Assembly (NCBI GenBank): GCA_963726195.1
Contig: CAVSBO010000011.1
Location: forward strand, 1 to 58,178
DNA: 58,178 nt
Direction of reading: 5' to 3'
From: Candidatus Thorarchaeota archaeon
GTDB lineage: Archaea; Asgardarchaeota; Thorarchaeia; Thorarchaeales; Thorarchaeaceae
The first letter of the stretch is position 1, and each line of letters begins with the position of its first letter. A model generated the notes under the pieces. The model worked only from the letters and a program-made list of their open reading frames with translations. It ran no database searches and was not told the DNA's origin. This document shows positions 24,130 through 43,691 of this stretch, piece after piece. A program made the position numbers and the translations under genes.

Positions 24130-25736
24130 TCACGACCTTGAGTCTTTCTGCACTATCTCTCCCGTAACAAGGCCAGGACTGAGCACTCCTGTTATCTGGA
24201 CTTTCACCAAGGTCCCCGGTGAATATCCGCCTTCAACAGAGATTATCGGTCCCTCTTCCAGAGGGTATACCATCGTGTTTCCATGCTTGGTCCACGAAGG
24301 CTCTGCTGCCACACCTTGTACAATCCTTCCTATGTACTCCGTTTTCTTTGTGCGATTGATTGTCTCTGCCGCCTTCCGCATTCTGCGGCCGAGTTCATTG
24401 CTGACAGAGGATGATTGGAAATGCTCGAAAGCAGATCTGGGGAGAGGACGAAAGCCGTACAGTATTATTCTCTCGGCTCCTTCACGGCTGACGTCCTTCA
24501 TCAGTCGGATTGACTCCCTCACTGTCTCATCAGTCTCGCCGGGAAGTCCATAGATGAGATACACAAATGGATGCATTCCGTGGGCGCTCGCCACTCGAAC
24601 TGCGCGTACTGCGTCGTCCGGTGTGCCGCATTTTCCTATACGGCGCAGATGCTCAGCCGACCCGGTCTCGATACCTATGTTCGGAGAGATACCTTTCAAG
24701 TGCCTTGATATGGTCTCACCAGCGGCGTCTGTCAGAAGGCAAGCCTTCATGTTCTCTATTCCAAGATGAGCTGAGCCATCTGCAATCTGCGGAATAATGG
24801 CAAGGGAGTCCAAGAGCTCCGAAATGGCTTCGAGATTGGCCGGCGGCTCGCATGGATCTGTGAGGTTCTGCCCTCTCATGTAGTCCAGAAAGTCTGGGGC
24901 CTCGAGAACAATACGTCTTACGCCCGCATCCAGAAGCTCTGTTGTCTCTCTGACAATCGACTCCGCCGAACGGTTTCTGGGTGGACCCCATGTAGCTGGC
25001 ACACTGCAGAAGCCGCACCCGGGGGTATGCCCTCAGGACAATCCATTCTTGTCGCATAATCATCGGAATCACAGTTGCCGCAATCAGAGCACTGACGCCC
25101 ATCAGGCAGCTTCATAACAGTCCGCCTGAAGTTCGAACAGCCGCGGAGCATCTCAACATACACCTTGCTTGCTTGGTAAGCCGGATAATCAACAATCCGC
25201 GTTGTCGAAGGCCTGTAATCGTCCCAGATTTCCTGAGAAGACAACAATGGACGAGAAGCGGTTATGAAACAAGTACCGGAGTCGCAGTAGCCCAGACCTT
25301 TGACAGTGGATAGATTTGTTTCCCCATCCAAGTAACCTTTGGTGATGAGTTCTCCAAGTGTCCTTTCCCCTTCTCCTACGACTAACACATCCGGTTTGAG
25401 TTCTCTGAGAACATGCTGGGGGTCTGAGGCAATTGGGCCGCCCAATAACACTCTGCCGTGTGATTCGAGGCGACGCCAGCCGTTAATGAGTCCTCGAACC
25501 ACGGGAACGTCCATTGTCATCGCAGTGATGGCAAGATGCTGATATTGTCGAAGAGTGCCTTTCTGCAGCAGCAGATCTTCGGCCCTCTTTATTCTGCATC
25601 GGATATCGTGCTTCTCGAAGACGCCTGCTATTGATCTTGGTCCGCACCCAATGGAATCCCTTGAACTCTCTCGGCGGCCAGTACCAGAACTCAGGGCATC
25701 AACGATAAGAACGCTTGACATTTGTCCATGTTGCAT
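24130..25736 (-). CDS. B12-binding radical SAM protein with TRAM-like tail (frameshift ~25010)
   Basis: LGGP, VGEGE, EMLRGCSNF with a Cys-rich insert, IGIETGS and IYGLPGET motifs. Confidence 0.85.
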
Positions 25737-25852
25737 TGAGTCACCGTTCTCTTTATCCTTGCTGAAGGGGTTTAAGATGGAGAAGCTTATATGTTCGAAT
25801 TGAGCACACCCGGTCAGAAATCCGAAAGGAAGAATGGCAAGGAGAATATACT

Positions 25853-26179
25853 CTGAGCACTGACGAGAGCATTTGTCCAAACTGTGGCTTGCCCCTCGAC
25901 CTGTGTGTCTGCCAGACAATAGCACAGGAAGAGGCAAGGATAACTGTGAGCGCAGAACGCAGAAAATGGGGTCGCTTGACGACCGTGATTGAAGGCTTCG
26001 ATAAGAACACTGACCTCGGTCAGATTGCCACGAAGCTCAAAAGCAAACTGGCCTGCGGGGGAGCTGCAAAGGAAGGTCATGTGGAGCTCCAAGGAGACCA
26101 CCGTAGAGTCATCAAGGACATTCTGAGCGGTCTAGGGTTTCCTGAATCAGCAATTGTGGTAGATTGGGCTAGCAGGTAG
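25853..26179 (+). CDS. Translation initiation factor aIF-1 (SUI1); probable CTG start
   Basis: ICPNCGLPLDLCVC, RKWG..TVIEG, LKSKLACGG and ELQGDH motifs. No in-frame ATG/GTG/TTG upstream of the zinc motif. Confidence 0.9.
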   Translation: MSTDESICPNCGLPLDLCVCQTIAQEEARITVSAERRKWGRLTTVIEGFDKNTDLGQIATKLKSKLACGGAAKEGHVELQGDHRRVIKDILSGLGFPESAIVVDWASR

Positions 26180-26298
26180 GTTTTGTACCTACATGGTCTA
26201 GGCCTATCTGGCTGTGGGCGGCCGCGTGCACTGATTCAAATGATTGGAGCTCAATCAGGTGTTTCCAGTTGACGCCAGTCAGGTGATTCGATAACAGG

Positions 26299-27273
26299 TT
26301 ACTCGCCGCCTAGTGACATCGAGTCGATTCCCAGCCGTCTGACCAGCTCTTTGTACCTATTGCGCACAGTAACTTCTGTCACTCTTGCAACCTCCGCAAT
26401 CTCACGCTGGGTCCTTCGCTCGTCCATCATGATTGATGCCACATATATCGCCGCAGCAGCGAGACCAAGAGGATCCCGACCGATGGTAAGCCCCATCTCG
26501 CGACTTTGGTTGAGCAACTCGACCGACCTGAGCTGTACAGGACTTGAGAGCGAGAGTTCAGAAGCAAACCGTGAAATGTAGTCTACTGGGTTGCTCAAGG
26601 GTATCTTGATTTCCAGACTTCTCAACAGCAGACGGTAGCATTGCCCGAGCTTCTTCTTGTCCACCCTCGATATGTCCGCTACCTCGTCCAACGGCCGAGG
26701 CTTCGAACGTATTCTGCAAGCGGCATAGAGAGTAGCAGCAACCATCGCTTCAATGGAACGTCCTCTTACGAGCTTCTGGAGTATGGACTTCCTATAAAGA
26801 AGTGCGGCCAGCTCACGAATCTGCTTTGGAATTCCGAGTTGGGACGACAGCCTCTCAAGCTCGGACATGGCCTGTGCGAGATTCCTATCCATTGAACTGT
26901 GAACGCGAGACCTTATCTGCCACCTGCGAAGGCGATAGATTTCAGACCGACGCGTGGGTGTTAGCTTTCGGCCTGCAGTATCCCTGTCACGCCAGTCGAT
27001 TACTGTTGTAAGGCCTTTGTCATGCACTGTGTAGCGGAGGGGGGCACCAACACGACTTCTCGCATCAGACTCGTCTGAACTGAAAGCTCTCCATTCTGCA
27101 CCCGTGTCAATCCGATGATCTGACAAGACCAAGCCGCAACTGCCACATACGCGTTCCCCTCTGGTTGCGTCCTCGACTACAGAGTTAGATCCACATTCAG
27201 GACATGCGGTGGGTTCTTGCGAATGCTGAGGCTGAGTACCTTTGCCGATAGGCGAACCTCGCATCTGACCCAC
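26299..27273 (-). CDS. tfb: Transcription initiation factor IIB
   Basis: Zinc ribbon CPECG..CGSCG, EWRAF, two cyclin repeats and VTEVTVRNRYKE. Confidence 0.97.
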   Translation of the reverse strand: MGQMRGSPIGKGTQPQHSQEPTACPECGSNSVVEDATRGERVCGSCGLVLSDHRIDTGAEWRAFSSDESDARSRVGAPLRYTVHDKGLTTVIDWRDRDTAGRKLTPTRRSEIYRLRRWQIRSRVHSSMDRNLAQAMSELERLSSQLGIPKQIRELAALLYRKSILQKLVRGRSIEAMVAATLYAACRIRSKPRPLDEVADISRVDKKKLGQCYRLLLRSLEIKIPLSNPVDYISRFASELSLSSPVQLRSVELLNQSREMGLTIGRDPLGLAAAAIYVASIMMDERRTQREIAEVARVTEVTVRNRYKELVRRLGIDSMSLGGE

Positions 27274-27446
27274 CTTCGCTCCTCCTTTCAGGTCCGAGCT
27301 AGCACATGGCTGCCGTCGCTATCAAGAAGAGACAGGTTCTCAAGACAGTCTCCCGGGCCTACATGAACACAAGAGCAAAACCCCTTTTTAAGGATTGAGC
27401 CAAACGGCGGCAATCGTAGACAACAACGGGATTTCCAGCTCTGAAT

Positions 27447-28409
27447 CTATGTAGTTTGTTCGTGGCCATCATGAGTCACAATCAGTGTGTGCTCACTCTG
27501 TGTCACAAGCACGCCTTTCTCCTCGGCTAGGATGTGATGCGCGTAGAGGGCACCACTGAGACGCAGTTCTCGTATTGCCATCTTGAGAGTTGCATGCTTC
27601 ATCCTTTGTGCCATCCAGCGCTCGGCGAATGGGAAGCCCTTAAACTCTTTGCGGGCGATGCTTAGGAATTCCTTCGTTCCTTGAAACCGCACAGGGACCA
27701 TGATTGGAAGAAGCTGATAGATCATTGGGTTCGGAAGATCGGCTACATTACCAGAACCTGTGCTCGCGAAGGTCTCGACTGCGTAGACTTCGCCTTCTTC
27801 CACCAAAACTTCGGACTTACCTGAGACACACGGCACCTGCTTCTCACCGTGTAACTCGTATTCCGAGAGTTGATGGCCTGAGAGCTGCTTGATTGGCATG
27901 AAGCCCGCACTCTTGATAGTGTCTTCAATAAGCGCTCCTATCGAGTTGAGCTTGGCGCCGGGGCGCATTAGCTCGACCGCCACCTTCGTGGCCTCAACAG
28001 ATGCCTTGACCAAGCTTTCATGCTCGGGGCTCAATGCAACAGCGGATGCGGTATCAGAAATGCACCCCTCGACATGCGCTCCGCAGTCCACAGACACGAC
28101 ACCGGTCTCTGGTATCACTGTTTCATCATTCAGGGGCGAGGTGTAATGTGCGGCTATGTTGTTTATTGACACATTGCATGGGAACGACGGACCAGAGGCA
28201 TTAGCCCGGATATAATTCTCAACTGCCTCGACAATATCTATGACCTTCGTACCCGGTTTTACCATCGGACGCGCGACGGCGAGTGCGTCACGAGCTGCGG
28301 CTCCTGCCCGTCTCCAATTCTCCCACTTATCCTCAGGGGCCTTCTTCTCTTCGTTATTTGTCTGCTTCTTTTCAGTCTTTGTCTGCTTCTTTTCAGGCAT
28401 CAGTGTCAC
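27447..28409 (-). CDS. map: Methionine aminopeptidase type II
   Basis: FPCNVSINNIAAHYT, DCGAHVEG..SD, GH, VETF and EHT motifs. Confidence 0.95.
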   Translation of the reverse strand: MTLMPEKKQTKTEKKQTNNEEKKAPEDKWENWRRAGAAARDALAVARPMVKPGTKVIDIVEAVENYIRANASGPSFPCNVSINNIAAHYTSPLNDETVIPETGVVSVDCGAHVEGCISDTASAVALSPEHESLVKASVEATKVAVELMRPGAKLNSIGALIEDTIKSAGFMPIKQLSGHQLSEYELHGEKQVPCVSGKSEVLVEEGEVYAVETFASTGSGNVADLPNPMIYQLLPIMVPVRFQGTKEFLSIARKEFKGFPFAERWMAQRMKHATLKMAIRELRLSGALYAHHILAEEKGVLVTQSEHTLIVTHDGHEQTT

Positions 28410-43200: not shown

Positions 43201-43413
43201 TTGGCCCGATTGAAGCCCAACGACATCAGAAAGCTAACTCCACCTGAGCGGCAGAAGAAGCTTCAGGATCTGTATAATGAACTCACGAATACTCGAATTC
43301 AACTCGTAACGGGTGGAGGAACAGAGAACCCCCACAAGACCAAGGGTGTGAAGAAGGCAATAGCACGCGTCCTCACAATAGAACGCGAGATCGAACTGGA
43401 GGGCTCTAAATGA
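43201..43413 (+). CDS. rpl29: Ribosomal protein uL29
   Basis: ENPHK...KKAIARVLT; operon position. Confidence 0.93.
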   Translation: MARLKPNDIRKLTPPERQKKLQDLYNELTNTRIQLVTGGGTENPHKTKGVKKAIARVLTIEREIELEGSK

Positions 43414-43691
43414 AGGTGACCCTCAACAACCTGGTCAGACACGAGCTCATCGGGATGAGCACTCACATCGTTGAAGCGCGCGACCCAAGCTTGGTATGCA
43501 GAACGGGTACAATAGTCGATGAGTCCAAGGAGACTTTCAGGTTGGCCACCGCAAATCGAGAGATTACCGTTCCAAAGAGCATCTGTGTCTTCGGTCTCAG
43601 ACTTCCCAGCGGTGAACTCGTGCACGTAGATGGACACTTACTGGCAGGACGCCCGGAGGACAGACTCAAGAAGTCCCTGAGGAGGCATTGA
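43410..43691 (+). CDS. rnp1: RNase P protein component 1 (Rpp29)
   Basis: HELIG, GTIVDE, VPK and GRPEDRLK motifs. Confidence 0.92.
   Translation: MKVTLNNLVRHELIGMSTHIVEARDPSLVCRTGTIVDESKETFRLATANREITVPKSICVFGLRLPSGELVHVDGHLLAGRPEDRLKKSLRRH

Follow-up and report, generated by a model that had tools for sequence, protein, structure and literature searches.

Two genes for factors that guard start-codon selection are described as acting on their own translation through the initiation site. In E. coli, infC, which encodes IF3, opens with an AUU codon and is subject to translational autorepression (noted in PMC4705826), and eukaryotic eIF1 (SUI1) is autoregulated through the poor Kozak context of its AUG (Ivanov et al. 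2010, cited in PMC6237735). For the archaeal protein aIF1, in vitro evidence of fidelity comes from S. solfataricus and P. abyssi only (PMC6237735; PMC4705826); in the presence of S. solfataricus aIF1 the 30S subunit binds an AUG mRNA and not an AUU mRNA, and complexes formed on non-AUG codons are destabilized (PMC4705826; PMC6237735). It follows from this discrimination that aIF1 genes with a near-cognate start should be translated less when the concentration of aIF1 is high. A 2014 review treated the selective advantage of GUG and UUG starts in archaeal translational control as an open question. Full-text searches of papers open without subscription turned up no account of non-AUG starts or of autoregulation for aIF1 in archaea, and the papers found describe neither a non-AUG start nor feedback for the aIF1 genes of S. 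solfataricus, P. abyssi and M. jannaschii.

The gene considered here lies in a window of 58,178 nucleotides, the whole stretch of DNA that was analysed, from a Thorarchaeota metagenome-assembled genome (assembly G000; 2.9 Mb in 19 contigs) whose nearest named record is OWC5 (Candidatus Thorarchaeota; 97% amino acid identity). As in infC, the gene of a fidelity factor itself appears to open at a conserved noncanonical codon behind a Shine-Dalgarno sequence, and the predicted logic would be the same, a high level of the factor lowering its own initiation; however, IF3 and aIF1 are unrelated proteins, and the codons are CUG and GUG here rather than AUU. The window's aIF1 and eIF1 belong to an orthologous family (SUI1, PF01253) and would share the same fidelity role and a weak initiation site of their own, but eIF1 keeps AUG, in a weak context, and depends on scanning, whereas the window's aIF1 has a near-cognate codon and a strong Shine-Dalgarno sequence. 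An AUG in poor context of the eIF1 type was accordingly rejected for this locus, in which a strong and conserved Shine-Dalgarno sequence precedes a CUG start. The biochemically and structurally characterized aIF1 proteins of S. solfataricus, P. abyssi and M. jannaschii are of the same family and share the SUI1 fold region, and that of M. jannaschii also has the zinc-knuckle N-terminus (PMC6237735, PDB 4mo0). An out-of-frame ATG upstream of the start gives the locus a surface resemblance to two further cases of translation-factor autoregulation, uORF control of the eIF5 type and the +1 frameshift of RF2 (prfB); unlike these, it has neither a conserved uORF nor a shift site.

The aIF1 Gene and Its Start Site

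The SUI1/aIF1 frame is open from TGA 25763-25765 to TAG 26177-26179; the features discussed below are collected in Table 1. Read from the CTG codon, the protein matches Pfam SUI1 (PF01253) with 60.4-60.9 bits against a cut-off of 25.5, over residues 27-97, and matches M. jannaschii aIF1 (4mo0) at E 3.8e-28 over query residues 6 to 101, the CxxC...CxC knuckle included; a further match, to 5zcy, has an E value of 3.5e-24. The zinc knuckle is kept in nearly all of the Asgard aIF1 orthologues examined. A Pfam profile search of the whole 2.9-Mb assembly found one copy of SUI1, and by homology we infer that its product safeguards the fidelity of start-codon choice on the 30S subunit.

In genomes of the M. 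jannaschii type, the aIF1 gene is placed between rpl29 and rnp1. The window's gene, unlike theirs, lies between a radical-SAM-like gene and TFB, and the first-pass annotation was right that it is missing from the commoner position: the genes for L29 (43201-43413) and the RNase P protein Rnp1 (43410-43691) adjoin, the stop of L29 overlapping the Rnp1 ATG at 43410, and no SUI1 occurs between them (window 43201-43691), which indicates that aIF1 has moved 17 kb from the ribosomal-protein cluster. L29 itself starts at a TTG codon (43201). The order around aIF1 is the same across the family (window 24130-28409; loci L003-L051), namely the divergent radical-SAM-like gene, aIF1, the convergent TFB gene and methionine aminopeptidase. 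The radical-SAM-like gene is a single ORF in all relatives. In the window (24130-25736, minus strand) it falls into two frames, since a C5 run (G5 on the plus strand) at about 25010-25016 is 1 nt short; either the gene is a true pseudogene or the assembly is wrong at this homopolymer.

Table 1. Positions of the aIF1 gene and associated features in the window
Feature	Position	Strand	Remarks
TATA-like box CTTATATG	25786..25793	+	In the divergent intergenic region, common with the upstream radical-SAM-like gene
Out-of-frame 9-codon uORF MARRIYSEH*	25834..25863 (TGA 25861-25863)	+	Overlaps the Shine-Dalgarno sequence and the CTG; probably incidental
Shine-Dalgarno sequence AGGAGA	25840..25845	+	AGGAG kept 8-11 nt 5′ of the start across the family
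Probable CUG start codon of aIF1	25853..25855	+	In 57 distinct leaders the codon at this position is GTG, CTG or, once, ATT
aIF1/SUI1 coding sequence	25853..26179	+	108 aa plus TAG; matches Pfam SUI1 and 4mo0
N-terminal zinc knuckle, C8-x2-C11...C18-x-C20	25874..25912	+	Aligns with CPRCGLPKELCVC of M. jannaschii aIF1
First canonical in-frame start, TTG	25889..25891	+	Leu codon of CGLP in CPNCGLP; opens a 96-aa ORF (25889..26179)

The sequence agrees with two further claims made at first pass, that the frame contains no ATG, GTG or TTG from the stop at 25763 until TTG 25889, and that CTG 25853 sits 7 nt past AGGAGA. The other positions given at first pass are likewise correct. Measured from AGGAG, the spacing is 8 nt, within the genome-wide optimum of 8-10 nt at which ATG starts behind AGGAG reach their peak. 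The comparison of orthologues given below strongly supports the CUG start, and we consider it very probable that translation of aIF1 begins at CUG 25853.

In the mechanism we propose, a promoter with the TATA box would give rise to a leader of about 37 nt for a single aIF1 gene, transcription starting at about 25815 if the usual archaeal spacing between TATA box and transcription start applies. A "cttatatg" motif lies 55-70 nt 5′ of the start codon in most loci of the family, and the CTTATATG box is found 40-50 nt farther upstream than AGGAG across the family. CUG 25853 would be positioned by the strong AGGAG element, and the initiator tRNA would decode it as Met. This would yield (M)STDESICPNCGLP..., the zinc-knuckle form of aIF1, and initiation at CUG predicts the N-terminal peptide STDESICPNCGLPLDLCVCQTIAQEEAR, with Met removed and the new terminus possibly acetylated. 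A search of the assembly for the 3′ end of 16S rRNA, as the source of the anti-Shine-Dalgarno sequence, gave no rRNA-like match, and aragorn recognized neither an initiator tRNA nor an initiator-like tRNA(CAG) in G000 among only 26 tRNAs detected; the sole tRNA-Met in that set has a CAT anticodon and a 65-nt intron and is elongator-like (G000:C16:246851-246992). The same program reports a tRNA-SeC(TCA) at G000:C13:134005-134095.

Start Codons of aIF1 in the Family, the Phylum and the Genome

Orthologous aIF1 loci were compared within the family (63 genomes with a match) and across 26 other families of the phylum, the homologous start position being taken as the one 6-8 codons ahead of the first Cys. 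The first-pass annotation had suggested looking across Asgard genomes for conserved non-AUG starts, and had allowed that the orthologues might all carry ATG. Within the family none does: among 57 distinct leaders the start codon is GTG in 42, CTG in 14 and ATT in one, and neither ATG nor TTG occurs, so that a non-AUG start is kept in all 57, as a gene resembling infC would be expected to show; such a recurrence exceeds what chance would give.

Several features of these leaders bear on where the protein begins. An in-frame stop lies two or three codons 5′ of the CTG in 7 of the 14 CTG leaders (L004, L006, L007, L010, L017, L019 and L037), for example as TGA AAC CTG, TAA ACT CTG or TAA TTT AGG CTG, and in those genomes there can therefore be no translation into the protein from upstream. 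Codon 2 specifies Ser in 54 of the 57 leaders, through AGY in 37 and TCN in 17, with both types present within the CTG group, and the retention of Ser by way of both codon families points to selection at the protein level that starts exactly at codon 2; codon -1 is unconstrained over the same 57 leaders and is a stop in five of them. The CTG is common to separate assemblies of the window's genus (the window, the L003/L122/L123 population, L124 and L004/L125), and it is present in every genus-level relative found. One genus, g12, has AGGTG in place of AGGAG; of the three g12 genomes, two carry an in-frame ATG six codons 5′ of the CTG and each has a GTG in frame within an SD-like AAGGTGG, which leaves the aIF1 start of this genus ambiguous.

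A maximum-likelihood family tree based on aIF1, TFB and the gene upstream implies about five changes of start-codon state, none of them to ATG; the backbone of this tree is poorly resolved, and the minimum number of independent changes could be two. Judged from the aligned leaders, aIF1 has retained a weak start codon throughout the family, GUG or CUG in all leaders but the one with AUU, and AUG in none. The single ATT, which is also the infC codon, belongs to L022 (G005:C1, about 47850), where it stands in place of GTG at the same 11-nt spacing from AGGAG as in its congeners.

Most of the other Asgard families examined start aIF1 with ATG. GTG is found in families f2, f10 and f18 and in part of f5, TTG in f23, CTG in f4, ATA in f8, f16 and f27, and ATT in f9 (Loki-type) as well as in the one member of the window's family just mentioned.

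How unusual CUG is in G000 was assessed by counting codons 8-10 nt from AGGAG that head a reading frame of 100 codons or more and have no canonical start between them and the preceding in-frame stop, with spacings of 14-30 as background. ATG was counted 62 times (background 9.4; net share about 46%), TTG 36 times (6.4; about 26%), GTG 27 times (6.4; about 18%), CTG 11 times (4.2; about 6%) and ATA 8 times (3.4; about 4%), and all other sense codons together gave 207 against a background of 210.7. By these counts ATG is the default start in G000. Three other genes are credible candidates for a CUG start. The first encodes a DUF1156/N6_N4 DNA methylase of 730 aa (G000:C16:227520-229712, plus strand; L118:221-2410), whose CTG lies 8 nt past AGGAG, whose DUF1156 match extends from residue 10, and whose first canonical start is codon 34. 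The others are two paralogues of about 400 aa (G000:C1:265-1503, plus strand, and G000:C5:58742-59944, minus strand), which have no Pfam match; both read AGGAGTG...CTG, and their common N-terminus, LSHENLELHPQ, lies 23 codons 5′ of the first canonical start.

With these candidates CUG would be a rare fourth start in this genome and aIF1 not its sole user, so that CTG, at about 6%, is rare and not unique, and GTG, at about 18% of strong-SD starts, is ordinary. What is specific to aIF1 is the family-wide lack of ATG and TTG, which together make up about 72% of the strong-SD starts of G000. There is no general pattern among the initiation-factor genes: aIF1A has an apparent TTG start (G000:C16, minus strand, 50718) behind GGAGGATC / CGGAGGATC, and aIF2-beta (G000:C16, about 52985) starts with ATG without an obvious Shine-Dalgarno sequence.

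Possible Feedback on the aIF1 Message and Other Readings

Because aIF1 destabilizes complexes on non-AUG codons, negative feedback is the likeliest function of the weak start. When aIF1 is plentiful, its own CUG would be rejected more often, and when aIF1 is scarce, initiation at CUG would rise; this supposes that CUG is weak in this organism and that the level of aIF1 modulates its use. By analogy with infC and eIF1, we lean slightly, if at all, toward the view that aIF1 exerts negative feedback on its own mRNA, and the statement as a whole, a CUG start together with weak-codon feedback, seems to us somewhat better than evenly balanced. That the start-codon proofreader would in this way sense and set the stringency of initiation is a suggestion we make tentatively, and we place it a little short of the balance point.

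Feedback fits the complete lack of ATG at the start codon across the family, and near-cognate aIF1 starts (CTG, ATA and ATT) recur in other Asgard families. Counting against it are the ordinary standing of GUG, the commonest state in the family, as an archaeal start, and the apparent use of CUG by the methylase and the two paralogues. TTG is also weak and is missing at the aIF1 start in the family, which a model in which any weak codon would serve does not predict. Since most other Asgard families have an AUG at aIF1, any such loop is not universal.

The CUG start might instead set a low, constitutive rate of translation for a factor that is needed sparingly, the strong Shine-Dalgarno sequence compensating in part and no feedback being involved. 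This accounts for the same sequences as feedback does, and the computed data separate neither from the other; moreover, the TTG start of aIF1A and the other apparent CUG genes occur in the same genome. However, it is as a fidelity factor in particular that aIF1 parallels infC and eIF1, and given that aIF1 rejects non-AUG codons in vitro, a CUG start could hardly be independent of the concentration of aIF1. We regard purely constitutive tuning as rather unlikely, though it deserves to be taken seriously.

It is improbable that the identity of the codon is a matter of neutral drift, start identity mattering little behind a strong Shine-Dalgarno sequence and GTG, CTG and ATT being historical accidents. 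The weak backbone of the family tree is compatible with CTG lineages that stem from perhaps very few events, and CTG and ATA are slightly in excess at SD-anchored sites genome-wide. But the two codons that predominate at strong-SD starts in G000 occur in 0 of 57 leaders at the aIF1 position, the change from GTG to ATG needs a single transition, and third positions and Ser codon families have turned over in the same sequences.

The first-pass annotation had placed the CUG beneath an overlapping AUG uORF, and a functional uORF could compete with the CUG start or gate it. The uORF exists and covers the CTG and the Shine-Dalgarno sequence, and the leader that contains it is identical in the window and the L003 population although the upstream flank differs; it is not conserved, however. 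Its ATG is present in the window, L003, L122 and L123 and absent from L124 (96% amino acid identity) and from L004 and L125 (same genus), all of which keep AGGAG...CTG. The family shows, if anything, a depletion of upstream ATGs: 22 of 57 leaders have one within the 38 nt before the start, against 30.5 ± 3.8 by shuffling, and neither the position nor the frame of these ATGs is constant. The ATG at 25834 lies upstream of the Shine-Dalgarno sequence and has no properly spaced one of its own, the nearest SD-like AGGAA ending 2 nt before it. Nor was a conserved RNA structure found in the leader and early coding region, where the window's fold has z = 0.32 and a 20-sequence consensus fold reaches -0.7 kcal/mol with no covariation in the leader. 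The uORF is therefore probably incidental, to judge from these comparisons, rather than part of a conserved design, and we think it very improbable that it is a regulator. Many leaders of another genus, g6 (L042, L101, L103, L105, L107 and similar ones), have an ATG out of frame with the GTG and 7 nt ahead of it (AGGAGTATAATGCTGCGTG), only 4 nt past the Shine-Dalgarno sequence; its frame relative to the start matches that of the uORF in the window. Since these leaders are related, that ATG may go back to a single inherited event.

More doubtful still is that translation truly begins at ATG 25834, a 1-nt assembly error or programmed +1 frameshifting linking it to the aIF1 ORF, whose frame is +1 relative to it. 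Such errors have precedents, in that this assembly has a 1-nt frameshift in the C5/G5 homopolymer of the neighbouring gene and an early annotation of S. solfataricus aIF1 had the gene interrupted by a -1 frameshift, whereas resequencing showed it to be intact (PMC8211752); two of the three g12 genomes, too, have their in-frame ATG before the CTG. But the indel that the first-pass annotation had offered as its alternative is refuted by independent assemblies, the OWC5 genome and two metagenome contigs of the OWC5 population (L003, L122 and L123), in which the ATG-to-CTG interval is identical, with the same length and frame and no run of more than 2 nt. In close relatives the ATG is missing or the CTG is closely preceded by an in-frame stop, and together with the agreement among assemblies this leads us to reject both an indel and a frameshift from ATG 25834. 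The window has no shift site or slippery site at TGA 25861 and no Shine-Dalgarno sequence 3 nt before it, and an RF2-like programmed +1 frameshift was rejected on these grounds: the nonconserved ATG, the missing shift site and the stops that precede the CTG in relatives.

Initiation at TTG 25889, the sole in-frame ATG, GTG or TTG, can be dismissed as scarcely credible, since the codon is the conserved Leu of CGLP with no Shine-Dalgarno sequence ahead of it, and the resulting 96-aa protein would lack the first half of the zinc knuckle, losing two of the four Cys ligands that align with those of M. jannaschii aIF1, whereas the residues upstream of the TTG are conserved as protein.

Implications for Annotation and for the Control of Initiation

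A CUG start at aIF1 has a practical consequence. Gene callers that accept only ATG, GTG and TTG would mis-annotate aIF1 as the product that begins at TTG 25889, with half of the zinc knuckle lost, and a few more genes of Thorarchaeota genomes that start with CUG would be mis-annotated likewise.

If negative feedback of aIF1 on its own message is real, archaea use the same principle of start-stringency control as bacteria (IF3) and eukaryotes (eIF1), and autoregulation of start fidelity would be common to the three domains, whether by convergence or by shared descent. The loop would, moreover, act on the orthologue of eIF1 in the lineage nearest to eukaryotes; it may be a forerunner of the poor-context loop of eIF1, whose origin would thereby become testable.
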